NCBI GenBank assembly: GCA_021513715.1
Contig: CP084167.1
Span: forward strand, 658,117 to 722,116
Direction: 5' to 3'
Source: Candidatus Heimdallarchaeum endolithica
GTDB lineage: Archaea; Asgardarchaeota; Heimdallarchaeia; Heimdallarchaeales; Heimdallarchaeaceae
DNA length: 64,000 nucleotides
Part shown: positions 1,540 to 17,432 of the stretch, piece by piece
Position numbering within the stretch: the first letter of the stretch is position 1
Layout: each line of letters starts with the position of its first letter
Notes under the pieces: model-generated
Database searches by the model: none
Told to the model about the DNA's origin: nothing
The model's input: the letters and a program-made list of their open reading frames with translations, nothing else
Position numbers and translations under genes: made by a program

Positions 1540-1960
1540 TAGAAGTAATATTGATCTAACAAGATTCTTATTAAATCTAATCAAATAAACACCAAATTTT
1601 TAACTAATTTTTTTCTTTAAAAAGATTATCTAAGTATCACTAGCAATCATAAAAACATGACTTTTATAAAACTTATTTTTATAAGTAATAATGTTTTGCT
1701 AATTATATACAGATTTAGTTTTGAAATTTATTTGTTTGACAATGATATAGTAATTCAGCAAAAGTAACTTTCACCGCTATATAATAAACTTAATTCCCGA
1801 TATTTTATTGGTGCTAAAGACTATAGTTACCAAATAAAGAAAAACATATGTTTTTACTTTTGTTCAACAAATAATTTTATATTGGGTTATAACCCATAAT
1901 CCTCTAGAAGTCTAAAACGAGAAAAAAGAGGCGATAAAAATAGGATATGGTTCAGGAAGA

Positions 1961-2362
1961 ATGCGTGGTGGAGGGAGAGGAAGGGGAGGAGGATTTGGAT
2001 TAGGAGCAGGAGGAGCCTGTATTTGTCCAGTGTGTGGTACAAAAGCTGCTCATGCAAGAGGGGTACCTTGTTTTCAATCTCGATGCCCACAATGTGGAGC
2101 ACCAATGACTAGAGCAGAAGCTTATGCCGGTCCCCAACCACAGTATAGTAAAAACGTACAAGAAGAGAAAGAATACAAATTTACTACAGCAGCAAAACCA
2201 CATATAGATCAATCTAGATGTAAGGGGTGTGCTTTATGCATAAATAGTTGTCCTTTTAATGTTATTAGAATGGAAAATGGTCATGCAATTATTGATTCTT
2301 CACGCTGCAGAAGTTGCGGAGTATGTATTTCTTCTTGTCCTGAAGGAGCAATAGTTTATTAG
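1961..2362 (+). CDS. Ferredoxin, 2x[4Fe-4S], with Gly/Arg-rich N-terminus and Cys4 zinc-ribbon-like motif
   Basis: C-terminal CKGCALCINSCP and CRSCGVCISSCP motifs; N-terminal GGGRGRGGGFG followed by CxCPVC...CPQC. Confidence 0.75.
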   Translation: MRGGGRGRGGGFGLGAGGACICPVCGTKAAHARGVPCFQSRCPQCGAPMTRAEAYAGPQPQYSKNVQEEKEYKFTTAAKPHIDQSRCKGCALCINSCPFNVIRMENGHAIIDSSRCRSCGVCISSCPEGAIVY

Positions 2363-2404
2363 AAAATGTAGAAAAAAATTAAAAATAGTTGAAAAAAATT
2401 CTTT

Positions 2405-2782
2405 TTATATTTTTAGTGGTTCAATGATTATACTATCTTTATCAAAAGTTGCCAAGTAAAAGTCTTCTGTTAAAATGAGACAACCAGTTGGACAAATATC
2501 TTGACATAATGCACAGAAGCAGCACTTTCCTAAATCTATTTGTGGATAAGTTTTTGGGTATTTTTCTTTATATTCTTTTTTTACTTCTACCATCTTTATT
2601 GCTTTATTTAAGCATATTTTGGCACATGATCCACAAGAGATGCAGTTATCGATGTCAAACTTATGTTTTGCTCTCTCTCTTTCTGGTATCTCTACTTTCT
2701 CCATTGGAAAAAGAACAGTCATTGGTCTTTTGAACAGATTCTTGAATATTTCTGAAATAACACTTAGTTTCATTGTTATCAC
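2405..2782 (-). CDS. NuoI-like 2x[4Fe-4S] subunit of a complex-I-like module
   Basis: Two Cys clusters CISCGSCAKIC and CCFCALCQDICP; last gene of the B-C-D-I operon, 2 nt after NuoD-like gene. Confidence 0.75.
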   Translation of the reverse strand: MITMKLSVISEIFKNLFKRPMTVLFPMEKVEIPERERAKHKFDIDNCISCGSCAKICLNKAIKMVEVKKEYKEKYPKTYPQIDLGKCCFCALCQDICPTGCLILTEDFYLATFDKDSIIIEPLKI

Positions 2783-2783
2783 C

Positions 2784-3896
2784 TCATCTATCTACATCAG
2801 CAGGACATTGGTTTAAACTCCAATAAATAGCAGGGACGTCAGCATAATAAGAATCAGTAAGTAAATGCTTTAAAATAGGTATCATATGAGTAAAAGAAGG
2901 ACCTCTGATCTTAACTCTATAAGGAGTCTTTTTTCCTGTAGCAATCATATAAATAGCGCCTTCTCCTCTTGATAGTTCATTACGTGTATAGGTTTCTCCT
3001 TTAGCTTTGCGGAAGTGAACAATAGGTTTCATATTAGGCGTTTTTACTTCCCCTTTTGGCATTCTGTCAATTGCTTGCTTAACTATCTTCTTGCTTTCTT
3101 CTATTTCTTGCATAGCTATCAAATATCTTGAATAAGCATCTCCTTCATCAAGAACTGGAATTTCAAACTCCAATTCATCATAAATTTCATAAGGATCATC
3201 TCTTCTAACATCTGAAGCAACCCCGCTAGCCCTTAAAATAGGTCCTGTTGCACCTAGTTTAATAGCTTCTTCTTTCGTTAACACTCCTACTTCTTTGAAT
3301 CTTTCCAACCATGCAGGATTTTCTTTTTTTGCGAATTTATGCATATAGTCAATCTTTTCAAATAAAGTAAGAATCTTTTTTTCTGCTTTCTCTGGTAAAT
3401 CTTTTCTTACTCCTCCAGGGCAGATATATCCAGCTGGATAAAGTCTTCCTCCAGTAATATAATCGAACACATCTAGCATATAGTCTCTGTATCCCATTGC
3501 AACATTAAATCCAGTAGTAAATCCTGTTCCCATTGACATCACAGCGTACCATATAAAGTGCGATTGTATTCTTGACAGTTCTGCAAGTATAACTCTGATG
3601 TATTTAGCTCTTTCTGGGATATCATAACCCATTAAAGTATCAACAGCTTCTGCATGGAGAAGATTCCACTGAAGAGGTTCTAAAACACATATTCTATCTG
3701 ATAATACGGAGTTTTGCATAGGTTCTCTATATTCCATTAACTTTTCAAAACCTCTATGTAAATATCCTGGATCTACTACAGCTTTCATCACTCTTTCTCC
3801 ACGAAGTTGAACTCTCACTGAAAAGTTTCCTGAACCAGGGTGAGCTGGTCCAAAGTACATTTCAAAATCTCCTTGTTTTTCTTCTATTTCAGTCAT
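2784..3896 (-). CDS. NuoD-like 49-kDa subunit (complex I / group 4 hydrogenase large-subunit fold, no NiFe-ligand Cys pairs)
   Basis: N-terminal FGPAHPGSGNF and C-terminal ...CPADVDR resemble NuoD; the N- and C-terminal CxxC pairs of [NiFe] hydrogenase large subunits are absent. Confidence 0.8.
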   Translation of the reverse strand: MTEIEEKQGDFEMYFGPAHPGSGNFSVRVQLRGERVMKAVVDPGYLHRGFEKLMEYREPMQNSVLSDRICVLEPLQWNLLHAEAVDTLMGYDIPERAKYIRVILAELSRIQSHFIWYAVMSMGTGFTTGFNVAMGYRDYMLDVFDYITGGRLYPAGYICPGGVRKDLPEKAEKKILTLFEKIDYMHKFAKKENPAWLERFKEVGVLTKEEAIKLGATGPILRASGVASDVRRDDPYEIYDELEFEIPVLDEGDAYSRYLIAMQEIEESKKIVKQAIDRMPKGEVKTPNMKPIVHFRKAKGETYTRNELSRGEGAIYMIATGKKTPYRVKIRGPSFTHMIPILKHLLTDSYYADVPAIYWSLNQCPADVDR

Positions 3897-4438
3897 TTTT
3901 TCACCTCAAAATAATTATCTTCTCTGGGATTACTTTCATTATAATATTCTTGTTGTACATATTTTCGCCAGTCGAAGTCCTTTCTAAACGGAGGAGGGCC
4001 ATCCCAGTCTTCCAACATTAGTGGAGTAAGATTAATGTTTCCTTTAAAAATCACGCCATAAAACTCATGGCATTCTCTTTCACATAATTCTGCATTTTTA
4101 CTCCATAGAGAAGTAACAGAAGATATTGTAGGATTTTCTCTATTTATCCTTGCTTTTATCGTTAAAAGCATTTTTTCTTTATAGGACCATAAATGGTAAG
4201 CAATTTCAAAATTATTCTTTTCAATCCAATCTGTAACACTTATTGTAGAAAGATGTTCAAAACCCATATCATAAGCAATCGAACAAGCATCTACTATTTC
4301 TTTAGGTTCAATAGATACCCAAAGTCTTTTTTTTCTTTGGATATTAACCTTCTTGTTTAATTTCTTACTTAAAGCCGTTACAATTTTTTCTTCTTTATAA
4401 TTATTCTTCTCTTTCTCTACTACACTCATTTTACTCAC
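3893..4438 (-). CDS. NuoC-like 30-kDa subunit
   Basis: ERECHEFYGVIFKGN signature; 4-bp overlap with NuoD-like and NuoB-like genes. Confidence 0.75.
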   Translation of the reverse strand: MSKMSVVEKEKNNYKEEKIVTALSKKLNKKVNIQRKKRLWVSIEPKEIVDACSIAYDMGFEHLSTISVTDWIEKNNFEIAYHLWSYKEKMLLTIKARINRENPTISSVTSLWSKNAELCERECHEFYGVIFKGNINLTPLMLEDWDGPPPFRKDFDWRKYVQQEYYNESNPREDNYFEVKK

Positions 4439-4875
4439 TCATCCGGCATTCCATGAACATGTTGAACTATTTTGAAAACAGCATCAAAAACAGCTTCAGG
4501 TCTGGGAGGACAACCAGGAATATACATGGTTACAGGAAGATAATCTTCAAGCTTCTTAACAGTGTTATATGAATCCCAATACATCCCACCTGTTATTGGA
4601 CATGAACCCAATGCTAAGACAAACTTTGGATCAGGCATTTGCTCATAAATCTTTTGTGCTCTCTTCATTGATTTTGGTGTCTGAAAACCAGCAATAAACA
4701 ACACATCAGCCTTTCTTGGTGAATTAACTGTTATCATTCCAAAACGTTCCATATCCCACCTTGAACCTACAACTGGGACAAGTTCAGTAAATCCACAAGA
4801 GTTAAACCAATTAAAAACCCAAATAGCTTTTACAAAATATTTCATCACAGTTTTCTTCTTAACCATCCTTTCCAC
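4435..4875 (-). CDS. NuoB-like 20-kDa subunit (hydrogenase small-subunit fold)
   Basis: GSCPITGG and GCPPRPE motifs; first motif is SC rather than the usual CC. Confidence 0.8.
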   Translation of the reverse strand: MERMVKKKTVMKYFVKAIWVFNWFNSCGFTELVPVVGSRWDMERFGMITVNSPRKADVLFIAGFQTPKSMKRAQKIYEQMPDPKFVLALGSCPITGGMYWDSYNTVKKLEDYLPVTMYIPGCPPRPEAVFDAVFKIVQHVHGMPDE

Positions 4876-5274
4876 TTTCTTCTCTTTTGTTTAGAAACAC
4901 AATACACAAATTCTTGCTATAATTATTTAAAAAAAAATCTACTTACATATATCTTTTAGGGTAAGGATTTAATCGTTTTGCTATACTTACAAGCCCAAAA
5001 ATGATAAAATAGGTCAATGACTTTTCGGATAACCGAACATTAATCAGTATAAACACCTGTCTAATCGTGTGAATAATTACGCACATGTTCAAAATGGTGA
5101 ATAACTGCGAATTAATTAACAATATATGTGTTTAAGAAAAAGCACATCTGCATTTAAGAATAGAAATTAATCAAACTATTAAATCTAAGAATTTGAGGAA
5201 ATAGATAAAAAAGTAAAAAAAAAGGAAAATAAAGAGACATCTACATTTATAACTTATAATACTCAAATAAATAA

Positions 5275-5400
5275 AAAAATTGTTATAAATGTGAAGGAAA
5301 ATTTGGTTAAGGTGTTCAGGAAAATAAACATTTGTAACGTGGTTCCCGTATGGGTAAGTTAATAACGTACAATCTGTTCTCCAATAAGCAAATAAATTTT
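5275..5400 (-). pseudogene. C-terminal fragment of an alpha/beta-hydrolase paralog
   Basis: Minus-strand translation ENLFAYWRTDCTLLTYPYGNHVTNVYFPEHLNQIFL aligns with the C-terminus of the esterase at 12161-13915 (ETYLNYGRKDCALLTFPYGSHAADIYFPGHFNQIFL); no upstream body or start. Confidence 0.5.
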
Positions 5401-5459
5401 CTTATCAAATCTTTTAAACTGTTAAATAAAAGAAAGAAGAAAAAAAAAGAGTGTAAAAA

Positions 5460-6020
5460 CTATTTTGATAATAGCTCAATAAAATTAGAAACAAATTTTT
5501 CGACTTTTTCCCAATCTCGTAAATCGATTACTTTATTCTTTGTATCATCATATTGTTTGGAAATAATTTCGACCATCTTTTTATCTAACCAGGTCATTTT
5601 GCTTTCAGGAGACAAATCAAGTTTTCCTCCAAATGCTTCAACTAAATTAAAGTTTAATCCGTATTTTTGTAGTCTAGAGAATATATATTCATTCTTTATG
5701 CTCTCATATTTCTCAGGATCTGCTGCAAAGGCAGAAGAAACAAAAAAAGCTTTAATTCCAATGTATTTTTTTAATGCTTCCTTTTCGTTTTTTACGAATT
5801 TTTTCACACTTTTTACCCACATAGACATCTTAATTCCAGTTCCAATAATAAGACCAGAATAATTGTTTATTTTTGGAAGTTCTTGTTTTTGAATTTGACC
5901 TAAGTCAATAATTTCAACATAAAAGTTATTTTTTTCCAATAATTCTTTAATTCTTTTAGTTACCTCTTCTTTGGCACCGTATCTAGAGCCAAAGACAATT
6001 AAAATTTTTTTATCATTCAT
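5460..6020 (-). CDS. Flavodoxin-like protein
   Basis: N-terminal KILIVFGSRYGAKEE flavodoxin-type FMN-binding loop; about 186 aa. Confidence 0.6.
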   Translation of the reverse strand: MNDKKILIVFGSRYGAKEEVTKRIKELLEKNNFYVEIIDLGQIQKQELPKINNYSGLIIGTGIKMSMWVKSVKKFVKNEKEALKKYIGIKAFFVSSAFAADPEKYESIKNEYIFSRLQKYGLNFNLVEAFGGKLDLSPESKMTWLDKKMVEIISKQYDDTKNKVIDLRDWEKVEKFVSNFIELLSK

Positions 6021-6097
6021 AAAAAAAGCAATGCTTGGTTATATTAAAATCTAGTGAAATATAATAATTGAAGAAAATTGTAAAAAAAAGAAAAAAA

Positions 6098-7777
6098 TTA
6101 TAATCTAATTCCGAATGTGGATAATTTCACACTAAACAAGAAAACAAAGAATACAATTGACCACACAGATCCTATAATACTGAGAATCAAAGCTTTTTTG
6201 TTTATTCCATTTTTCATTTCTGTTTTTTGAGCTTCTTTTGAAATAAAGTAAGAAATAAGAGAAAATGGAAAGATAAATAAACCTATTTTCGAAAGTTTAA
6301 GTGCAAAACTCGATTCAGTATGTTTTTCTCTATTGTTTCTATTAAGATCTACCCAGTCGACATTGTAAAAGTTCCCTTGAACATTCAATATATCTTTCTT
6401 CCACCACCTTTTTTCTGTTTCTTGTTTAGGTTCCTTTATGAAAAGATTGCGTAGAAAAACAATTATCCACTTCATGCTACCAAAATAGCCTATTTTCTCC
6501 CAGAAATAAGTCAAAACGTGGTAAAAAGCAAGCGACAATATTATCACAATAATTGTTCCACTCCAAGGAAGTCTTACATATGTGTCAGTCATTACTAAGC
6601 TAACAATAAAGTAGAACAAATTGTAGAAGTATTGCATGTTGTAAATAGTAAAAGGAATAAAACCTAATCGTCTAATGAATTTAGTGTGGTTAGCAAAAAT
6701 AGCACCTTTTCCTCTGAATTCAACTATTCGAAACATTACAGAGATTAAACAAAAGGAAAAACCATTTAAACTCAAAAATTGGAAAAGCCATCCAACTACT
6801 GGAACACCATTCTCTGTTGTCCAATATCTATGTTCACTTATATGTAAATACAAGTTTAGCCCTGCATCCATTCCTTGATTATTGATAACTAAGAATACGT
6901 TTAGAAAGACACCTATTATTCCAATAACAAACATTGCAATACTTATGAAAAAGAACTTTTTTAGAAAAGAAAGTTTAATTTTCTCTTCTTTTTGAGAGAT
7001 ATAAATTCCAAAAATACTCCCAGCGAAACTTGCAGTTAAATAAGGAAAGACTGGTTCCCACATTGCAGCTAATGGACCAAGGAAAAAGCGTAAAACAAAC
7101 TGTCCGAAGGAAGTTATACCAATTACACCAAATTCTACATTTTTTCCTGTAGCAGGATCAATAGCATAGGGATAACCAGGAACTAATTTATCTGATATAA
7201 ACCACATTAGAGGAGTAAAAGCAAGAGCTAACACAGCAAATAAGCTATAGAAAATAATTAAAGTAGAAGGCTTTCTCCATTTTTCGTTTCGTATAAGAAG
7301 CGCATGAACGATACCATTTATAATAATGCACCACGCAATTGTATGAACAGTCTCAAAAAATAAGAAACGCCATAAGGCTTGATCATATGTTCCTGCTTTT
7401 AAGTTGTTTAAATGAAGAAAAACTTCACCAATTGTTCCGTGATAACCTAAAATAGATTCAGATAACATCGCAAAAAAGAGAAGAAAAGAACCAGTAATTA
7501 CTTGACGAAGCATAATCTGTTTCCAATTATCCCCTCTTGCTAATTGTCTTTGCATAGAAATCATATTTCCTATAGCTGAAATAATTAGAAAAAGACCTGC
7601 AAGTCCGCCTAGAAAAGGAAGAACAACCAGTAATAAAACTTGAAATAAAGGTAATTGATCTAATTTAGCAACTAAGGAATCAATATCAAGGGTATCACTT
7701 ATTATATGAAGCACAATCATAAGAAAGATAGATATTCCTCTCAAGAAATCAATAGTAAAAAATCGTTTTTTAATCAT
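6098..7777 (-). CDS. Polytopic membrane protein, acyltransferase-3/DUF1624-like
   Basis: RFFTIDFLRGISIFLMIVLHI N-terminal motif; many predicted TM helices. Start taken at internal ATG 7777 rather than the track start 7894, which lies beyond a 14-nt homopolymer. Confidence 0.45.
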   Translation of the reverse strand: MIKKRFFTIDFLRGISIFLMIVLHIISDTLDIDSLVAKLDQLPLFQVLLLVVLPFLGGLAGLFLIISAIGNMISMQRQLARGDNWKQIMLRQVITGSFLLFFAMLSESILGYHGTIGEVFLHLNNLKAGTYDQALWRFLFFETVHTIAWCIIINGIVHALLIRNEKWRKPSTLIIFYSLFAVLALAFTPLMWFISDKLVPGYPYAIDPATGKNVEFGVIGITSFGQFVLRFFLGPLAAMWEPVFPYLTASFAGSIFGIYISQKEEKIKLSFLKKFFFISIAMFVIGIIGVFLNVFLVINNQGMDAGLNLYLHISEHRYWTTENGVPVVGWLFQFLSLNGFSFCLISVMFRIVEFRGKGAIFANHTKFIRRLGFIPFTIYNMQYFYNLFYFIVSLVMTDTYVRLPWSGTIIVIILSLAFYHVLTYFWEKIGYFGSMKWIIVFLRNLFIKEPKQETEKRWWKKDILNVQGNFYNVDWVDLNRNNREKHTESSFALKLSKIGLFIFPFSLISYFISKEAQKTEMKNGINKKALILSIIGSVWSIVFFVFLFSVKLSTFGIRL

Positions 7778-8203
7778 TAAACAAAAAAAAAAAAAATCTT
7801 TGTTAAAAGTTTTTCCTAATGCTGAAAAAGCGTTTAACTGCAATAAAAAAGTAAAAATTTGTTGGAAATTTAGGTTGTGAATAAATAGTATCATAGAAAT
7901 GAAAAATCAGATTAAAACCATCACTCCCAAGAAAAGATTAAATTTTGGAGTTAGAATCAAAAAGTCATTATAACAAGAAAAAGGATTTTTTGGGATTTAC
8001 TAATTATTATCATCAACTTTGTTTTTGTAAGATTATACTCTTTCTACTGTTATTTTAAAAGCTTATCCAATAAAGTGTAAAAACAGTTCTTGTTAGTGAA
8101 TTTGTTAATAAGAAACAAATAAATGCTCTTTTTTTTCATTAATCACTAATATTCAATTTTAAAATGTTGAAAAATGGAAAAAAAAGGTAAGAATCAGCTT
8201 TTA

Positions 8204-10579
8204 TTATTCTATTTCTTCTTTTGTAACTTTGGGCATTTTCTTTGGCCACCAGTTCCATTTCTGAGCTAATGACATTATTGCTGGAACCAATATTGTTCTA
8301 ATAAAGAAAGTGTCAACTAATACTGAAATACACAAGATAAAACCTATTTGATTCAATATCATCTCTGAGCTAATTAACAACCCTGAGAAGGCTATTGCCA
8401 TTATTATTCCTGCAGCTGTAATTATTGTTCCTGTTTTTTCTACTCCTTTTATTATTGCTGATCTATCAGAATAACCTTTTTTCCTATATTCGCTTATCCT
8501 ACTTAGAAGGAATATATCATAATCAAGTCCTAAACCCAGAACTATTGAAAAGCTAATTATAGGAACAATCCAGTAAAGAGAGTTCACCCCATTTAATACA
8601 TTTGGGAATAACCAGTCTAACACATTTTGCTCAAAAACAAGAACTGCTAAACCAAAAATCCAACTTAAGGTTAAGCCTATTGTTATTAGCAATCTCAAGG
8701 GAATAAAGAGTGAACGAAACATAATTACTATTAGAACGTATACAATCAAAACTACTGTTAAGATCATATAAGGAAAAAGGCTTATTGTTGTTTCTAGGGA
8801 ATCAATCCAAAATATTGCTCCTCCGGCAAGAAAGATCTTATATCCAAACTCTTCTTCAAAATCCTCCATTAATTCTCTTGTGTGTTTCACCCAATCCAGA
8901 GCTTCTTTTCCTTGAGGGTCAAAAGGAGTAATGATTTCAAAGAGTGCAGAAGAATTGTCTGATGTAGCATAATTAATCCACATTTGTTTATAAAGAACAG
9001 AATCACCATCTGATACTGATGGATTCAAAAGCATAGAGGCATAAAACCAAGGAATTGCTTGACCATTCAACCAAGATATACCAGTAATAGATTCATTCGT
9101 CAACATCGTTTCTTGAGATAGATTTGCAATGATCTTCTGACTATTAGTAAAAAAATCTGGTGTTCTTACTCCATTAGTTTCATTAGTTTGAAAAATTAAA
9201 TAATAGGGAAGTAACTGACCAGCTTTAAAATCGTCCTCTAAAAGAGCATAAGCATCCCATGTTTGAGTATTTCTAGGTAAAAGATGTTTGTTCTCCAAAC
9301 TAAGATCCATTTTCATTACATTTATAGATATTGGAATAGCAATAACTAAAACTAGTAAAATTATTGCAATTGCATATTTTTGAGAAAACTTTGTAATAGT
9401 GACCCAATTTATTTTCTTTTTTATTTTTTTGATATTTTGTTTAATTCTCTTATTTTTTCCATTATTCTGCATTTTCTCGATTTTCTTTTCTATTTTCTTG
9501 ATATATTTTTCATTATAGAAGAATTTACCAAAAGTAAGCAATGCTGCAGGAGTAAAAGTCAGATTTGTAAACAAAGTAACAACCACAGTAACGCCAGCTG
9601 ATAATCCCAAAGAAGCAATAGCATTAACAGGAAAGAACATCAATCCTAGAAAACATACTGCAAGAGTTAAACCAGAAACAAGTATTGTATGACCGGAATG
9701 CTCATTCATTAATGAAACAGCAGTATAATTATCTTTACCCTTTTCTACTTCTTCTCTATATCTCGTAAGTAAAAACAAACTATAGTCAATAGATATTGCT
9801 ATGACTAAAGACATCACAATACTCGGAGCAAAGGAAAGAATAGTATATATGTATGTAAATCCGTAAAGAATAAGAAAAGTTGTAAAAATACTAATTGCAA
9901 TGCTAACTAAAGGAAGAATCATAAGTTTAAGTCTTCTAATAACCAACGCTAAAACAATTAGAGCTATAGGTAAAATAAATGAATCCATTCGTTTTAAATT
10001 ATCTATAATTGCAATACTAAAATCTCTGTCCATTACAGCTAATCCTGTAAGAAATATTGTGTATTCTTCATGATTCAAATTTATTTCAGAAACAGTCTCT
10101 TCTACATAATCAATAAGATCAGCTTCCACTTTCTTATCTTCTACTTCATAAATAACAATAATCAATGTTGAAGTTAAATTCTCTGAAACAAATGATTGTG
10201 CTATATCAGATTGATTAATAGCTTGTAGACCATAATAACTGTAAACACCCTTAATTATTTGACTATCCTCAAATTTATCCAATTTATCCATTAGAGCAAA
10301 AGTATAATTTTGAACCTCTGTATTGAGAATAGACCTATTACTCTCTGATTTAATAATAATAATCAAACTTGTACTATTCGCTCTTTCAGGGAATTCTTGC
10401 TCTAAAAACTGTTGAGCCTTATATCCATCAGTATATAGCGGAGGTTCAACCACATTTTCTGTCCTATCAAAAAAATTAAACCCAAATGTTATCCCCAAAA
10501 CAAGTATAATTATCCAAAATACTAGTATTGGTATTTTAAATTTCTTTATGTATTTGTTATATATATCAACAATCCCCAT
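8204..10579 (-). CDS. MMPL-family (RND superfamily) membrane transporter
   Basis: Two repeated halves each with a TM bundle and a large loop domain; motifs LLTRYREEV and LSRISEYRKKG. Start taken at ATG 10579 (MGIVDIYNKY) rather than track start 10675. Confidence 0.7.
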   Translation of the reverse strand: MGIVDIYNKYIKKFKIPILVFWIIILVLGITFGFNFFDRTENVVEPPLYTDGYKAQQFLEQEFPERANSTSLIIIIKSESNRSILNTEVQNYTFALMDKLDKFEDSQIIKGVYSYYGLQAINQSDIAQSFVSENLTSTLIIVIYEVEDKKVEADLIDYVEETVSEINLNHEEYTIFLTGLAVMDRDFSIAIIDNLKRMDSFILPIALIVLALVIRRLKLMILPLVSIAISIFTTFLILYGFTYIYTILSFAPSIVMSLVIAISIDYSLFLLTRYREEVEKGKDNYTAVSLMNEHSGHTILVSGLTLAVCFLGLMFFPVNAIASLGLSAGVTVVVTLFTNLTFTPAALLTFGKFFYNEKYIKKIEKKIEKMQNNGKNKRIKQNIKKIKKKINWVTITKFSQKYAIAIILLVLVIAIPISINVMKMDLSLENKHLLPRNTQTWDAYALLEDDFKAGQLLPYYLIFQTNETNGVRTPDFFTNSQKIIANLSQETMLTNESITGISWLNGQAIPWFYASMLLNPSVSDGDSVLYKQMWINYATSDNSSALFEIITPFDPQGKEALDWVKHTRELMEDFEEEFGYKIFLAGGAIFWIDSLETTISLFPYMILTVVLIVYVLIVIMFRSLFIPLRLLITIGLTLSWIFGLAVLVFEQNVLDWLFPNVLNGVNSLYWIVPIISFSIVLGLGLDYDIFLLSRISEYRKKGYSDRSAIIKGVEKTGTIITAAGIIMAIAFSGLLISSEMILNQIGFILCISVLVDTFFIRTILVPAIMSLAQKWNWWPKKMPKVTKEEIE

Positions 10580-10649
10580 TTCAACCACCCAAAATATGTT
10601 TATTGTATTGGCAATTTTTATTGTCGGCACTCTAAACATAACAACACCC

Positions 10650-10657
10650 TTATATAA
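10650..10657 (+). promoter_or_regulatory. Candidate archaeal TATA box for the TetR-like gene
   Basis: TTATATAA about 30 nt upstream of the ATG at 10687, inside the 107-bp divergent intergenic region. Confidence 0.3.
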
Positions 10658-10686
10658 ACATAACCTTAAAACCATTCAGAAGAGAA

Positions 10687-11376
10687 ATGAATAATGGTTT
10701 CAGGATGAGAAAAGATCAAAGAAAAGAGTTGATTAAGCGAGTAACGATACAAAAAATGATTGAAGTGGGTATAGAAAATGTAAGTATGAAATCAATAGCT
10801 GAAGAAGCAAAGATATCAGACACATTACTTTATCGCTATTATCCCAGTAAATATGTGATTTTGTATGACTTTTTTCTGCATGAATTTGATAGAATTGATG
10901 ATAGGATTGAAGAAATCTTTGAAACAATAAAAATAATGATTACTGATCTTTATCAATCAATACCAATTTTAGTTAAAATATTGAAAAAATTGCTAAAAGA
11001 ATTCAAGTATGGGTTATTATTATTGATAAATGAAGAAGAAAAATTGTTTACTTACTTAGAAGAAGGAAGAAAAATTTGGGAAGAGAAAGGAGAGAAAGTC
11101 CCCACTCTTTCTGTAGAATACTTTCTAAATAAACAAGCAGTAGAAGTTATTGCAGAGTATTTTTCCAGATGTAAAAAAGACGGATTCTTCAAAGAATCAA
11201 TAGACCCAAAAGTTGCTTCAATGATGCTTATTACAATAATCTGGCAAACAATAATAAAAAGACCATACAAGTTCTTAGAACCAGAGATGACTGAAGAAGA
11301 ATACGACAAATTGCTTGATGGACAAATAGATATAATAATCAAGGCTTTGACTCCAAAGTCTAAAAGTGAAAAATAG
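10687..11376 (+). CDS. TetR-family transcriptional regulator
   Basis: N-terminal HTH (MSMKSIAEEAKISDTLLYRYYPSKYVIL); divergent from the MMPL transporter, the classic regulator/efflux arrangement. Confidence 0.7.
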   Translation: MNNGFRMRKDQRKELIKRVTIQKMIEVGIENVSMKSIAEEAKISDTLLYRYYPSKYVILYDFFLHEFDRIDDRIEEIFETIKIMITDLYQSIPILVKILKKLLKEFKYGLLLLINEEEKLFTYLEEGRKIWEEKGEKVPTLSVEYFLNKQAVEVIAEYFSRCKKDGFFKESIDPKVASMMLITIIWQTIIKRPYKFLEPEMTEEEYDKLLDGQIDIIIKALTPKSKSEK

Positions 11377-11420
11377 AATTAAAACTTAAGAAATAAAAAA
11401 GAAGTAGATCCATTATTAAG

Positions 11421-11837
11421 TTAATCTCTGATAAGTTCAATGAAATCGTTGGCAAATTTTTCTACTTTTTTCCAATCTCTGAAGTCAACAATATTGTTTT
11501 TCAAATCTGGTTCATAAACCCATTTTTCTGGAAATACAGGTTGAACATCATACATGCTGTAAAAGAGAATAGTAGGTCTAGTTTCATCTTGAATTATTTC
11601 CCCATAAACTATTGGATGACCAAATTCTCCTTTTGTTAAATCAACCAAATGAACGTTTTCTCCTCCTAAATGGACAATTTTTTTCATTAACATTTCCGTC
11701 ATTTTTTCTATTCCGTTTCCATCAGCGGATACGGAAGGTTGGCGGATAAATCGTCTAATTTCTTCAATATGTTTTGTTTCAAAATCTTCCCTTATTTTTG
11801 AGTAAATTTTCTCAATATTCAATTTAATCACAAACAA
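11421..11837 (-). pseudogene. Truncated M20-peptidase N-terminal fragment fused to a flavodoxin-type C-terminal tail
   Basis: N-terminal IRQPSVSADGNG...YSMYDVQPV resembles an M20/ArgE/DapE N-terminus, but the ORF is only 138 aa; last 20 aa (VDFRDWKKVEKFANDFIELIRD) match the flavodoxin C-terminus at 5460-5520. Confidence 0.45.
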
Positions 11838-12160
11838 GTCATATTGTTTATATAAATAGCTTTTAAGACTCTTTGCTAAAAGTACAACTATTTTATTCTA
11901 CTGTATTGGAGAAAAAGCTATCTTTGACTAAAAAAAACATATTTGTAAATTGAAATATGTGAGGTTATTGGCTTTTTTCTCTTATCTCCGTTCTTTATAC
12001 CAATATTATTAATATTTTCAATTATCTCAAAATTCGAAATATTAACACAGAAAACTTTTGCATAAGCTTTTTCATCGATTTGCTAAAATCAAAGATTTAT
12101 TTGTTGAAATATTATTTAAAAAAATAAAAAGAGAAAATAAAGGAATAAAAAAATAATATT

Positions 12161-13915
12161 TTAAGAATTATAAAGTATTAGGAAACGCTCCATGTAGTAA
12201 AGAAAAATTTGATTGAAATGTCCTGGAAAATAGATATCTGCAGCATGGCTTCCATATGGGAAAGTTAACAACGCACAATCTTTTCTTCCGTAATTTAAGT
12301 AAGTTTCTTTTATCAATTCTGATTCTTCTATTAACCTATCTTTCTCACCTTGAAAGATCAAACATGGAGGAGAATTTTGGTTAATTAATAAACTTGGGTT
12401 GACCCACTCTTCTTTACTTCTTGTTGCAAATTCATACTGAACATTATTTGCTGGATAATAAGGGATTAACCCTTTTATTGTTAGTTTATCTGAAAAAATA
12501 TTTGTATAATTTTCTGAAACTATAGATAACGCTGTTGCACAAGCGAGTTGACCTCCCGCTGATCCTCCTGAAATAAAAACAGAAGATAAGTTAGCTCCAT
12601 ATTTAGCAGCATTCTTTTCTAAATATAAAGTGAAATTTCCTATATGTCTCAACATATCATCGATTATAAAATCTCCATAGACATATTCGGGTCCTGATTG
12701 AAGAGAACCAAAGACTTGTGTATTATTATTTAAGCCATACTGGATATCAAAAACGATGTAGCCCTGAGCGGCTAGATATCTATTCATCATTTGAACATTC
12801 ATCATTCCTTTATCTCCAATAACCCATCCTCCACCATGGATTCTGATAATTGTAGCGTTTCTTCCTGGTAAATCATTTGTAGGTTTTTTTGGTAAATAAG
12901 CATCGAAGTAAAGTTTAATGTTTTTATCAACCAAATAATTACTTTCACTCCCATCAAAGAAAAGAACGTTAGATATTGTTTCGCATTCCGGATTACCAGT
13001 TCCTAGAAAATAACCAGTTAGCTGAAAAGGTGTTTCTAATAGATAATCTTCATAACCTGAATCTTCTATGATTTTTCTCCAATCACCGTCGAAATAAGAA
13101 TTGAACGCGTTACTAAATTCTTTGTCTGTAGAACTAATCGTAGAGGGAATATAGCCCATAGGAATAAAAGATATGGAACTAAATGCCAATCCTAAAACAA
13201 TAATAGTTGTAGCAGTGAATTTCATTTCGCTTATTTTTTTCTTTATTGTGTAAAGAAGGAAGAAAGTAGAATTGTAGATAACTATCCCCAGTATTAAAGC
13301 TCCTGGAATAAAAAAAACGTTCATGAAGAAAAAGAGCGTGTTTTGAATTCTTGGAGCAAAGAAGATTATTATAGCAAATAAACCCATAATCATACCAAAT
13401 AAAGCTTCTATTGTCAAGAGTATTTTCAAAAATTTGTAAAGGATCTTCTTTTTATTTGCTCTTACATCAACTTTGTTTCTGTTTTCCTCTTTCTTTTTTG
13501 AATCTAAAAAGAAAAACAGCAATATCACTAAGGGAATAAAAAAGAGGAGAATAAAGGTTAATAGAATGACTGAACTAAATAAAGCATTAACTACTTTATC
13601 GGGAGTGTAGCCTACAAAATTAATGAAAAAGAGAACAAGAACACTCAGATTTGTATATAGATAAAATATATAAGTTAATATCCTCACCCTTTTGAGCTCA
13701 GTTCCTTCTTTTTCTCTCACTTTGCCTATTAATGCAAAAAACAAACTGTTCAAGAAAATTGTGAGAATAATCAGTAAACCATTAATGTTCCAAACAAACA
13801 AATTTGAGGGAAAAATGAAATAAATTGTTCCTGTAATAATGTTAAGAAGATTTAAAGCAAATAAAACCGAACAAATATAGAAACTCAATGATTTCATAAA
13901 AAAATAAAATTTCAA
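12161..13915 (-). CDS. Membrane-anchored alpha/beta-hydrolase (hormone-sensitive-lipase-type esterase)
   Basis: N-terminal multi-TM region followed by HGGGW oxyanion-hole motif and GGSAGG nucleophile elbow. Confidence 0.7.
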   Translation of the reverse strand: MKFYFFMKSLSFYICSVLFALNLLNIITGTIYFIFPSNLFVWNINGLLIILTIFLNSLFFALIGKVREKEGTELKRVRILTYIFYLYTNLSVLVLFFINFVGYTPDKVVNALFSSVILLTFILLFFIPLVILLFFFLDSKKKEENRNKVDVRANKKKILYKFLKILLTIEALFGMIMGLFAIIIFFAPRIQNTLFFFMNVFFIPGALILGIVIYNSTFFLLYTIKKKISEMKFTATTIIVLGLAFSSISFIPMGYIPSTISSTDKEFSNAFNSYFDGDWRKIIEDSGYEDYLLETPFQLTGYFLGTGNPECETISNVLFFDGSESNYLVDKNIKLYFDAYLPKKPTNDLPGRNATIIRIHGGGWVIGDKGMMNVQMMNRYLAAQGYIVFDIQYGLNNNTQVFGSLQSGPEYVYGDFIIDDMLRHIGNFTLYLEKNAAKYGANLSSVFISGGSAGGQLACATALSIVSENYTNIFSDKLTIKGLIPYYPANNVQYEFATRSKEEWVNPSLLINQNSPPCLIFQGEKDRLIEESELIKETYLNYGRKDCALLTFPYGSHAADIYFPGHFNQIFLYYMERFLILYNS

Positions 13916-14121
13916 TCTATTTATTTATTTTTTGTGTGGAAAATAACAAAAACATTTATTTTCAAATAAATAAATTTGAAGGAAAATATCTGATTATTGG
14001 AAAATATTTATCAAACTTACAAAGCCAAAAATCATAAAAAAACATATTCAAATTCTCATAAATAATATTACACTATTTTTTATTTATGAATATTTAAATA
14101 TGTAAATAGCCGCAAATTTTT

Positions 14122-14466
14122 ATGGAAATCGGATATATTTACCTAATAATATTTGTTGTTTTCCTTGTTTTAGGGGTATTAACACATTTTGGTTATTTGA
14201 ACATAATAATTGAACGTTATTCTGCTTTTCAACATCTTATTAGAAAGAAGAACTTTAAAGTTGATAAAAAGAAGGTATCAAAGTACTATGAGACTCATTT
14301 CTATTTCTTTAGTGTTTTATTCCTTATTTCTGGCATAATAGCCCTAGTTAATTTCACCAATGCTACTCAAGTAGCTTTTTGGATAGTTATTGGTACAATT
14401 ATAATTGGTGTTTTGGCTTTTCTTTTCCTAAACATTTTGAAGAGATTTTTAATTTTTAAAGAATAA
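14122..14466 (+). CDS. Small hypothetical membrane protein
   Basis: 114-aa ORF with three hydrophobic segments; no recognisable motif. Confidence 0.35.
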   Translation: MEIGYIYLIIFVVFLVLGVLTHFGYLNIIIERYSAFQHLIRKKNFKVDKKKVSKYYETHFYFFSVLFLISGIIALVNFTNATQVAFWIVIGTIIIGVLAFLFLNILKRFLIFKE

Positions 14467-14526
14467 ACCTGTAATCTACCAATTATATTTTTTTTCCTAA
14501 AGACTATGTTGCAAACTTATTAGAAA

Positions 14527-14575
14527 TTTTTTCTACTTTTTTTCAATCTCTTAAGTCAATTATTTTGTTTTAATA
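14527..14575 (-). pseudogene. Orphan remnant of the flavodoxin-type C-terminal module
   Basis: Minus-strand KIIDLRD*KKVEK; nucleotide similarity to 5487-5540 and 11449-11500, with TGA where the other copies have TGG (Trp). Confidence 0.4.
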
Positions 14576-14786
14576 TTTTAATATTGTTTAGAAACTATTT
14601 CTGCAATTTCTTATTCCACCATCAACTTAAATCTTTATGAATACCGATTTGCTGGATAATAAGAAAATGGACAAAAGTAAAAAGAAGAAAACATTTTGAA
14701 GATTAAAAAGTAAACTAAGGAAACAGGAATGTTACCAAATTTTTATAACCAAAAAACGAATAGATGGAGTAAATTTCTAATTTTCA

Positions 14787-15161
14787 TTATTCTAAGTATG
14801 GAATCACACAAAGAAAAACAACTTTCTCGCTTCCAATATTTTTATACCCATGAGGTTCATTAGGTGGAACGTACAACACATCATTAGCTTTAACTTCTAT
14901 CTCTTCTTCTTCATTAAAGACCACACAAGTGCCTTGAAGAAAGTAGATTTCGTGTTCTTGAGGATGATGGTGTAAACCTATTTGTCCTTTTGATTCAATT
15001 TCGAACCTTCGCATGGCAAATCTTGGAGCTCCATCTTCTTTACTAATCAACCATCTAATTGTTGTACCAGTTGACCCATAATCATCAACATTCTTTTTTT
15101 CAACTTCTTCAAAATATTTCTTAATCATTTTATTCACAGTTACAATCAAGAATTCAACCAT
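14787..15161 (-). CDS. Cupin-domain protein
   Basis: GLHHHPQEHEIYFLQG ... YVPPNEPHGYKN cupin motifs. Confidence 0.65.
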   Translation of the reverse strand: MVEFLIVTVNKMIKKYFEEVEKKNVDDYGSTGTTIRWLISKEDGAPRFAMRRFEIESKGQIGLHHHPQEHEIYFLQGTCVVFNEEEEIEVKANDVLYVPPNEPHGYKNIGSEKVVFLCVIPYLE

Positions 15162-15386
15162 TTTTTAATTTTTCTCAAATTAATACTGTTTCAATTAATT
15201 TCAATATTCAAATAAAAAAGTAGGTCTGAAGATTGTTTATATCAAATAACTTTTTGGAATGTTGTTAAGCAATTCATTTTATAATTGAATGATATAAGCT
15301 TTATCACATAATTTTTATCAAAAAAATCACACATTAATAATTTTAAAATAGAAAAACCTTAAATTTACTTCGTTTATACATAATTT

Positions 15387-16172
15387 ATGGGAAAAGCTGA
15401 AAAAGATTATATTGATCAACTAGATGCCCAGTACAAACGTCAATCTGTATGGACAAAAGATTATAGAAATAGGATCTATCGTCAGATTGGGATTAAAGGA
15501 GCTAGAAGAGTACTTGAAGTTGGTTGTGGAACAGGAACAATAACCAAAGAAATACGTGAAAAAACTTCTGCCCAAATAACTGCAATAGATAGAGATCATT
15601 TAGTTATTGCCACTGCACAAGAAAATATTACAGATGTAGAATTTTATCGTATGAGCGTTGAAAAGATGTCTTTTCGAGACGAAACTTTTAATATTGTTTT
15701 GTGCAACTATTTCTTTATGTGGCTTGATAAACCTTTCAAGTCTCTTATGGAAATGGTTAGGGTTTGTAAAACAGGGGGATACATAGTCGCTCTTGCAGAA
15801 CCTGATTATGGAGGGTGGATAGAACACCCTGATTTTGGTTTAGGAAAGCAACACATTGAAGGAATTAAAAAACAAGGTGCGGACCCTTTTGTGGGAAGAA
15901 AAATTCTTTCTCTGTTTGAATCTGCAGGATTAGAAACAAATATCTCTGTTGTGGCAAATGTGTGGGAAAAGGAAAGGTTATTAGAACAAATCAAGAATGA
16001 GTGGAAACTTGTTTTAGAAACAGAACAGATAACTGATGAAGAGTACCAAGAGATAATGAAAAAAGAAGTAAAAACGATAGAAGAGAACATGAGAATGATT
16101 TTCTTACCTATATTTTCTGCGGTAGGCAAAAAAGTAAGATGTGTACAAGAACCAAAAACCACTTCTTCATAA
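15387..16172 (+). CDS. Class I SAM-dependent methyltransferase
   Basis: VLEVGCGTGT motif I. Confidence 0.7.
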   Translation: MGKAEKDYIDQLDAQYKRQSVWTKDYRNRIYRQIGIKGARRVLEVGCGTGTITKEIREKTSAQITAIDRDHLVIATAQENITDVEFYRMSVEKMSFRDETFNIVLCNYFFMWLDKPFKSLMEMVRVCKTGGYIVALAEPDYGGWIEHPDFGLGKQHIEGIKKQGADPFVGRKILSLFESAGLETNISVVANVWEKERLLEQIKNEWKLVLETEQITDEEYQEIMKKEVKTIEENMRMIFLPIFSAVGKKVRCVQEPKTTSS

Positions 16173-16251
16173 ATTCTTTTTTTTTCAAATCATATTTAAC
16201 TACAACTTGATTACAAAGGATTTTTTAATAATAAATATAATTAGAAGTTAA

Positions 16252-16941
16252 ATGGATAATATTTCACTATTCTTCTTAATTTTATTTGCTGTAGTGTCGA
16301 TTTTGCATATTATCGGAGAGTTTACAATTGATCTAAAGAACAAACGAAATACTATTTTGAACTCAATTACCAAACTTCTTATTATCCCATCGTTATTAGT
16401 TTTTTACATCATTTCAGTAATTTCAATATATCCCTTTATAGTCTCTGCTTTAGTTTCAGGGTTCTTGGGAGATTTATTTTTACTTTTACAAAGAATATAT
16501 AGAAAAGAACGATTCTTCTATTTAGGACTAGGTTCTTTTGGTCTTGGACATATTTTCTACACTTCTAACTTCATTATTTTATCTTCTTTCCACGATTTTA
16601 GATGCTATTCTATTTTTCTTACATTTCCATTTCTTTTAGCAGGAATAACAATAGCTAAAATTCTATTATCACATATTGAAAAGAAAAAAGAGAAGATTTC
16701 AGTAGTTATTTACATTTTACTAACAGTTATTCTAGGAATTGGTTCTTCCTTACTTTTGGCTTCAAGTTATCTAACAGGTGAGTTACTAATCTATATTGGA
16801 ACTATATTTTTTGCTATTTCAGATGGAATGAATGGATATTGCAGATTTGTTAAACAGATAAAATACAAAGAAACTATAATTATGAGCACTTATATTGTAG
16901 CTCAATTTTTAATTATTTATAATATTATAAAAATTGTTTGA
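16252..16941 (+). CDS. Hypothetical polytopic membrane protein
   Basis: 229 aa, about 7 hydrophobic helices; no confident family assignment. Confidence 0.4.
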   Translation: MDNISLFFLILFAVVSILHIIGEFTIDLKNKRNTILNSITKLLIIPSLLVFYIISVISIYPFIVSALVSGFLGDLFLLLQRIYRKERFFYLGLGSFGLGHIFYTSNFIILSSFHDFRCYSIFLTFPFLLAGITIAKILLSHIEKKKEKISVVIYILLTVILGIGSSLLLASSYLTGELLIYIGTIFFAISDGMNGYCRFVKQIKYKETIIMSTYIVAQFLIIYNIIKIV

Positions 16942-17432
16942 CAAAAATGAATATCTCTATTTAAAAATAATTATTATAATATTTACTACAAAAAATTGAA
17001 TTTAGGAATGAGTTAGAGAAAAGAAAGTATATTCGACTGGAAAAGAAAAAGGATCAAAATATTTTATAATAATAAGGAGTTTTTTCACTTTCTTTTTCTG
17101 ATTAACATTTCTGGTTCTCACAATTATCTATCTTGTGATTGTGAAAAACTTGAAAAATTCTATTCATAAAAACCTTTAGTAATAGAAACATAATGTACAA
17201 AAAGTTTATTGAAAATTCTTACAATAATATCAGTCTTTCTTTCGATATAGTCTACTTTATTTTCTTCACCTAATTTTTTGTTTACTTTCAAAAATAAAAA
17301 AATAGAAAAAAATAATTTTAAGTTATTAGAAAAAAAGTAATTGTTTCTTTGACTTATTACTTTTAATTAACCCTATCTTATTTTAATAATAACTTTATAT
17401 ATTAAAATCTTCTACCTACTAGAAATCACAAG

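Follow-up and report, generated by a model that had tools for sequence, protein, structure and literature searches.

Flavodoxin 3' ends at a Candidatus Heimdallarchaeum endolithica locus as leftovers of gene decay, including an in-frame deletion fusion with an M20 peptidase gene

Short direct repeats of gene 3' ends within a few kilobases are known from two settings, the duplicated 3' ends of genes at att sites and the orphan C-terminal cassettes of polymorphic toxin loci. A third setting in which the 3' end of one gene can come to close another is microhomology-mediated deletion, which may leave an in-frame chimeric pseudogene. The protein families concerned in the present case are Flavodoxin_5 (PF12724), comprising HemG-like long-chain flavodoxin-like proteins, and Peptidase M20/M25/M40, comprising a catalytic domain (PF01546) and a dimerization domain (PF07687). 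The DNA analyzed here (the window, a 64-kb stretch of the genome of Ca. Heimdallarchaeum endolithica PR6, A+T-rich with 30.5% GC) was described in a sequence-only reading as containing the same C-terminal coding tail at three loci. Two explanations were offered there, namely that a short segment had been repeatedly copied onto gene 3' ends or that several flavodoxin paralogs had decayed, leaving only their tails.

When compared with these systems, the locus resembles att-site duplications and toxin cassettes in having short direct 3'-end repeats within a few kilobases. It differs from them in lacking an integrase and any toxin or immunity gene, in the 13 to 24% divergence of the repeats and in having native genes in conserved synteny between them. 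The closer likeness is to microhomology-mediated deletion, with a single junction in a 5-nt direct repeat, the loss of 2.36 kb, a strain-specific event and the destruction of both parental domains. In this respect the locus shows nothing unusual, except that the predeletion state, a second truncation (in the environmental contig L054) and an older remnant are all visible in one population. With respect to Flavodoxin_5, both the Pfam score and the predicted fold clearly place the gene FldA in the family, and the repeated "module" corresponds to the conserved C-terminal D-L-R-D-W...F motif of the family (last short strand plus C-terminal helix), whereas the fragments at 11421-11515 and 14507-14620 amount to about 30 to 38 codons and are unable to form the fold. 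With respect to the M20 family, the first ~107 codons of the chimeric open reading frame (ORF) are an M20 5' end by descent, but the chimera has only ~16 of roughly 380 PF01546 residues and does not score against that domain. The features of the locus are as follows.

5460-6020, minus strand: FldA, an intact Flavodoxin_5 gene of 186 aa (Pfam PF12724, full-length nhmmer match, AF2 model, Foldseek).
10687-11376, plus strand: TetR-family regulator gene, convergent with the chimera (Pfam TetR_N; synteny with L001, L002 and L004).
11421-11837, minus strand: chimeric ORF, 138 aa from a TTG start, composed of an M20 5' end and an FldB 3' end.
11421-11510, minus strand: FldB-derived tail of the chimera, the last 29 codons plus stop (nhmmer, alignment).
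11511-11515, minus strand: deletion junction, a 5-nt microhomology ATGAA (three-way comparison of the window, L001 and L004).
11516-11837, minus strand: M20-derived part of the chimera, codons 1 to ~107 (DNA alignments to Ca. H. aukensis L004 and to L054, L055 and L009).
12161-13915, minus strand: BD-FAE/alpha-beta-hydrolase esterase gene with an N-terminal membrane domain (Pfam).
14122-14466, plus strand: DUF3784 membrane-protein gene, convergent with the remnant and lying between the remnant and the esterase (Pfam PF12650).
14507-14620, minus strand: psi-FldC, pseudogene remnant of a third flavodoxin paralog (nhmmer E value of 2.5e-9, translations, alignment).

All three tail loci lie on the minus strand, and their similarity within the 64-kb window was far above chance. 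In blastn comparisons of the window, FldA and the remnant were 76% identical over 87 nt (E value of 2e-10), the chimera and the remnant 87% identical over 47 nt (E value of 4e-11), and FldA and the chimera 93% identical over 27 nt (E value of 1.6e-5). A DNA profile made from six flavodoxin genes was then used to search the 64-kb window by nhmmer with all filters off (--max), and exactly three significant matches were obtained, the next best having an E value of 0.29. These matches were the whole FldA gene (6020-5462, E value of 4.5e-149), the chimera tail (11516-11422, E value of 5.6e-15, profile positions 478 to 569) and the remnant (14620-14507, profile positions 440 to 555 with two 1-nt gaps). 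Further tail copies or lost flavodoxin 5' parts were not found in the window by blastn, tblastn or nhmmer --max. The presence of the same tail at three loci, and the placement of those loci, was therefore borne out by both search methods, while the size of about 50 bp given to the tail was too small, the flavodoxin part being about 90 to 95 nt in the chimera (11421-11515) and about 114 nt in the remnant (14507-14620).

FldA is the only complete flavodoxin paralog in the window, and what the other two loci match is its 3' region (about 5462-5590). The protein passed the Flavodoxin_5 gathering threshold (E value of 1e-17 and 65.2 bits against a cut-off of 27). Its AF2 model (pLDDT of 87.9, pTM of 0.86) exhibited strands alternating with helices, including a short strand at residues 164 to 166 and a C-terminal helix at residues 170 to 185, and the best Foldseek matches in the PDB were flavodoxin, WrbA and PnpB, each with a probability of 1.0. 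The sequence search against the PDB produced marginal matches only (E > 0.2). FldA is thus predicted to adopt the flavodoxin-like alpha/beta fold with a C-terminal helix. In some sources, FldA homologues bear the annotation menaquinone-dependent protoporphyrinogen oxidase.

Among 27 aligned flavodoxin homologues, D166, D169 and W170 were invariant and L167 and R168 nearly so, with hydrophobic positions following. As judged from this alignment, conservation in this flavodoxin subfamily is highest in the DLRDW..VEKF..F tail, and according to the predicted structure the tail is an integral part of the flavodoxin fold rather than a separable domain. Both fragments encode the last short strand and helix only, with the remnant additionally covering the preceding helix. 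The tails differ among themselves by 13 to 24% in DNA, which fits old paralogy, the full-length paralogs being 56 to 58% identical in protein. Since the tail is the best conserved part, it is only there that the DNA similarity of old paralogs has survived, and hence the tail has the look of a module.

The ORF at 11421-11837 is annotated by NCBI as a 133-aa hypothetical protein of Ca. H. endolithica starting at 11822 (K9W46_02685), to which the ORF protein is 99% identical. Its N terminus had been recognized as a truncated M20 peptidase fragment, and this was confirmed by the 99% DNA identity that the M20 part shares with the intact L054 gene at its 5' end; relative to aukensis the identity of this part was 89% in protein. 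The native M20 upstream region is also kept, reaching about 11963. In the tail, 26 of the 29 residues (an identity of 0.897) were identical to FldB of aukensis and to the FldB protein P0018. The chimera had no Pfam match at an E value of ≤0.01, the only one listed being a subthreshold GlutR_dimer match (E value of 0.039); PF12724 did not match, nor did Pfam M20 at an E value of ≤0.1. In the intact M20 orthologue, PF01546 covers residues 92 to 470 and PF07687 covers residues 239 to 390, and the dimerization domain is absent from the chimera along with nearly all of the catalytic domain. The N-terminal segment therefore belongs to the M20 family by descent and not by domain content. The ORF was found to have no full-length homologue elsewhere, the only full-length match among 5.8 billion proteins being the ORF itself, which fits a strain-specific accident rather than a gene family.

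In Ca. H. aukensis (L004) and in two Heimdallarchaeaceae MAGs (L001 and L002), the gene order was found to be methyltransferase (MT), cupin, M20, small ORF, FldB, convergent TetR and MMPL, with an M20 of 502 to 524 aa and an FldB of 190 aa (P0018). Window 11963-11511, comprising the M20 upstream region and the first ~107 codons, aligned to L004 6344-6802 with 86% identity, and window 11515-8041 aligned to L004 9160-12641, comprising the last ~31 FldB codons, TetR and MMPL. These two blastn blocks overlapped by exactly 5 nt, corresponding to the ATGAA at 11511-11515, and about 2.36 kb is missing from the window relative to L004. The M20 side of the junction reads ...TGGGTTTATGAA|GAAAAAATG and the FldB side reads ...GAACATGAA|CCAGATATG, while the window reads ...TGGGTTTATGAACCAGATTTG. 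The ATGAA has one and the same codon phase in the two genes (M20, ..TAT GAA|GAA AAA; FldB, ..CAT GAA|CCA GAT), and the reading frame therefore continues to the FldB stop. Beyond this stop, the chimera tail runs on into the conserved FldB-TetR spacer and into TetR itself, the conserved right-hand neighbor of FldB in the relatives, with the TetR stop codon located 44 nt from the chimera stop. Close relatives thus have the two parent genes as neighbors in the same orientation, and one breakpoint suffices to produce the chimera.

From these comparisons we propose that FldB lay about 0.7 kb downstream of M20 on the same strand and that a single recent deletion of ~2.36 kb would have extended from M20 codon ~107 to FldB codon ~161. 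The ends would have been joined at ATGAA, creating an in-frame fusion that reads to the FldB stop. What the fusion would retain is, from M20, the promoter, the start and ~16 residues of the catalytic domain and, from the flavodoxin, no more than its final short strand and C-terminal helix.

Up to exactly 11511, three environmental contigs (L054, L055 and L009) had 98 to 99% identity to the window, and they then continued into an intact M20 gene of 505 to 524 aa and the small ORF. The presence of an intact M20 in such near-identical strains indicates that the deletion is specific to PR6 and recent. The PR6 genome was assembled from Nanopore data with Canu (PMC8813620), and an assembly artefact was considered. 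An independent Logan assembly (L066, run SRR15988961) was 100% identical over 12,690 nt (window 4687-17376), junction included, which argues against a Nanopore/Canu artefact, and this candidate was rejected.

We also considered whether the chimeric ORF could be a functional new gene, encoding a small protein that uses the M20 N-terminal segment and the flavodoxin helix. Its open frame, its native M20 upstream region and its low omega relative to aukensis would accord with such a role, the M20 fragment and the tail both having values of 0.13 to 0.16. These values could reflect constraint, but the recency of the deletion explains them equally well, since the fusion is too young to have drifted; in the dN/dS of the chimera versus aukensis, constraint and recency are inseparable, and the differences between PR6 and L054 are too few to use. 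An in-frame outcome is expected by chance in one case out of three, both parental domains are missing, and the chimera was found in PR6 itself only, with an intact M20 in strains that are 98 to 99% identical. We therefore hold a functional new gene to be very improbable. The chimera is best regarded as a young chimeric pseudogene that, judging from what remains of its parents, is non-functional.

Two further observations were made on the M20 genes of this group. The motif FYSMYDVQP (window ~11540-11560; also P0002 to P0007 and L054) has Met where the Nitrososphaerota proteins P0030 and P0035 have His (FYN-H-YDVQP). The latter is similar to the conserved HxD motif by which M20 enzymes bind metal, and the Asgard M20 subfamily at this locus may accordingly be predicted to have altered metal binding. 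In the Logan contig L003 (5992-7500), the M20 homologue aligned in one frame over 506 residues although gene calling had divided it into two genes (137 aa and 350 aa). The Lys of ..NQKGP.. is exchanged there for an in-frame stop, which could represent a pseudogene, a sequencing error or recoding.

The comparison with L054 also bears on how the junction arose. PR6 and L054 were 99.0% identical over 11.9 kb up to 11511 and 88.8% identical from 11494 through TetR, and the drop was abrupt at the chimera junction (window 11494-10862 versus L054 13585-14215). Such a switch in identity implies that either PR6 or L054 has a recombination boundary there. The junction might thus derive from the import of diverged DNA out of another Heimdallarchaeum lineage, through illegitimate recombination anchored at the microhomology, with a homologous crossover to the right (in TetR, MMPL or beyond), rather than from a simple intrachromosomal deletion. 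The mosaic character of the locus relative to aukensis is in keeping with such an import (dS of 0.01 to 0.04 for 1855-5378, 0.36 to 0.67 for the backbone and >1.8 for the cupin and esterase), and gene flow has been reported in these genomes (PMC8813620). However, L054 has an FldB truncation of its own, so that the diverged right flank could equally be an import in L054 and not in PR6. Moreover, no contig was found that combined the PR6-type right flank with an intact FldB, the sole contig with an identical TetR being from the same strain. We consider import unlikely but deserving of some weight; it would alter the mechanism alone, leaving the product and its non-functional status unchanged. 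Simple deletion remains our preferred reading of the junction.

The FldB truncation in L054 was located at ~13560-13660, where the spacer that comes after the small ORF runs straight into the last ~24 FldB codons, the joint being a CAAT.ATATTG microhomology. L054 thereby lacks what corresponds to L004 8520-9180. The L054 tail is mutated at conserved positions (RDW to RNW, VEKFA to EEKYT). PR6 keeps 21 nt of FldB that are absent from L054, indicating that the two truncations are independent, and FldB appears to be dispensable in the endolithica clade. FldA was not found at the aukensis locus (about 22 kb of aukensis), nor was there an aukensis FldA among the homologues listed. The loss of FldB, as well as that of the third paralog FldC, may have been tolerated through redundancy with FldA.

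The remnant at 14507-14620 corresponds to about flavodoxin residues 147 to 183 and carries two 1-nt deletions, one TAA and the TGA that had been reported in place of the Trp codon, which was seen in the translations. It reads in two frames as ..EIAEIVSKQY*NIKTK / NKIIDLRD*KKVEKISNKFAT*. Its homology to flavodoxin-coding sequence reaches about 50 nt further 5' than the tail, as had been proposed as a sign of paralog decay. A 3-nt gap and the SKQY codons are in common with FldA-type genes, and the ending NKFAT resembles that of the flavodoxin P0059 (NEFATLIG); by sequence comparison, the remnant comes closest to the window copies but does not derive from either of them. The same lesions were observed in six related contigs (L054 to L059, 96 to 99% identical to the window), and hence the remnant predates the PR6 deletion. 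The DUF3784 arrangement was also the same in L054 to L058.

To the left of the remnant, the window esterase had 65.6% amino acid identity to the esterase of L006, its closest homologue, versus 57.9% to the aukensis esterase. In L006 the intact flavodoxin P0059 ends 10 nt ahead of the esterase, and it was in this contig only that the esterase-flavodoxin adjacency was met. Among 45 metagenome loci, of which one (L009) was from the same species, no flavodoxin was found beside the esterase at the 44 more distant ones (32 to 52% identical). Likewise, an intact flavodoxin between the cupin and DUF3784 was not found in the relatives (L054 to L058, P0085, P0087 and P0088), the last three being more distant Heimdallarchaeaceae that have no intact FldC by the cupin and the same divergent MT/cupin orientation as the window. 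We suggest that 14507-14620 would be the older, mutated 3' end of FldC, a paralog once located upstream of the esterase, and that the locus formerly contained several paralogous Flavodoxin_5 genes, of which PR6 retains only FldA whole. FldC was thus probably once intact at the remnant site, a scenario that rests on the single contig L006, 65.6% identical in the esterase, and that L006 supports without proving.

In sum, the three copies very probably represent one intact flavodoxin gene and the 3' leftovers of two flavodoxin paralogs wrecked by deletion. Of the two explanations offered initially, the decay of flavodoxin paralogs was the one sustained, both by the chimera deletion as rebuilt from intact relatives and by the frameshifts, stops and extended homology of the remnant. 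The other, in which unrelated genes acquire at their 3' ends copies of a mobile coding module of ~50 bp, as in integration-site duplication or C-terminal cassette swapping, would account for the direct orientation of the three copies, their spacing within 9 kb and the closing of an ORF with a non-flavodoxin N terminus by one of them. Yet the relatives have a whole FldB at the exact place of the fusion, and the copies are only 76 to 93% identical. No integrase or transposase lies between or beside them, the intervening genes being DUF3784, the esterase and the native M20 5' end in synteny with the relatives, and there is no fourth copy in the window. Nor is homology confined to the module between unrelated flanks, as it runs upstream into flavodoxin-coding sequence in the remnant and downstream through the FldB-TetR spacer and TetR in the chimera. 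Given this divergence, the positions at sites that a whole flavodoxin occupies or plausibly once occupied and the lack of mobility genes, we regard copying of a module as extremely improbable. The tail feature is real, and it is ordinary gene decay, not a mobile coding module.

A different question is whether the tails have been retained for a reason. Oligo-T tracts act as archaeal terminators. On the antisense strand, the chimera tail is AAATTTTTCTACTTTTTTCC; its T5 and T6 tracts (about 11455-11475) form the first run of at least 5 T met on the plus strand after the TetR stop, and the remnant has antisense T6 and T7 tracts. The tails might thus have been selectively kept because these tracts would terminate the convergent TetR and DUF3784 transcripts, flavodoxin deletions then being tolerated only if they stopped short of the tail. 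Consistent with this, the two independent FldB truncations (PR6 and L054) both retain the T-tract stretch, and in L054 the tracts persist despite the mutated conserved codons. On the other hand, there are only three events, and a random deletion endpoint in a 573-nt gene leaves at least 70 nt about 80% of the time. In addition, DUF3784 has a T8 run of its own before the remnant, and A+T-rich coding sequence gives T runs by chance. Selective retention is therefore doubtful, rather more so than import. It is slightly less likely still that the tails are not neutral debris and that the T5 to T7 tracts, antisense to the W-K-K-V-E-K-F codons, are putative terminators for TetR and DUF3784. If true, a terminator role would explain why three independent truncations (FldB in PR6, FldB in L054 and psi-FldC) stopped 70 to 115 nt before the flavodoxin stop. 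Ordinary decay of the paralogs is the reading retained here.

Several other rearrangements were observed at the locus. Window 1855-5378, a Nuo/hydrogenase-like operon (NuoB-, NuoC- and NuoD-like genes) together with its upstream spacer, was 95% identical to L004 14299-17813 of aukensis. The dS of this operon versus aukensis was 0.01 to 0.04, compared with 0.36 to 0.67 for neighboring backbone genes, in genomes of 88% ANI, and the operon looks like a recent exchange between endolithica and aukensis. Its NuoC-like gene had 7 amino acid changes relative to aukensis and almost no synonymous ones. Between MMPL and this operon (window 5384-8041 versus L004 12641-14299), PR6 has FldA and a 598-aa multipass membrane protein with no Pfam match, whereas aukensis has an esterase. 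In PR6 a diverged esterase (dS of 1.9) and DUF3784 lie between the cupin and M20, and the PR6 cupin is inverted and diverged (dS of 3.1) relative to aukensis. An ENA contig (L008 1-1607) matched window 6743-5384 and 3150-2902 with 92 to 95% identity, jumping from just downstream of FldA (5384) to 3150 in the NuoD-like gene and skipping 2.2 kb, which represents either a structural variant or a chimeric assembly. At window 12012-12050, a 40-nt AT-rich inverted match to the 5' end of the aukensis esterase (L004 12701-12740; 85%, E value of 7e-5) was examined as the trace of an inversion and set aside, as it fits no simple rearrangement and may be either a rearrangement trace or a chance match. 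Taken on gene order and divergence, the locus is a rearrangement hot spot.

The chimera is a clear-cut case of microhomology-mediated deletion, here in an Asgard archaeon; its use is practical, for annotation, without conceptual novelty. As a strain-specific deletion chimera, K9W46_02685 of the reference Ca. H. endolithica genome should not be counted as a gene family, a peptidase or a novel Asgard protein. For a Heimdallarchaeum population, the two FldB truncations together with the older remnant document that flavodoxin paralogs were lost more than once, in independent events, from a single locus prone to rearrangement.
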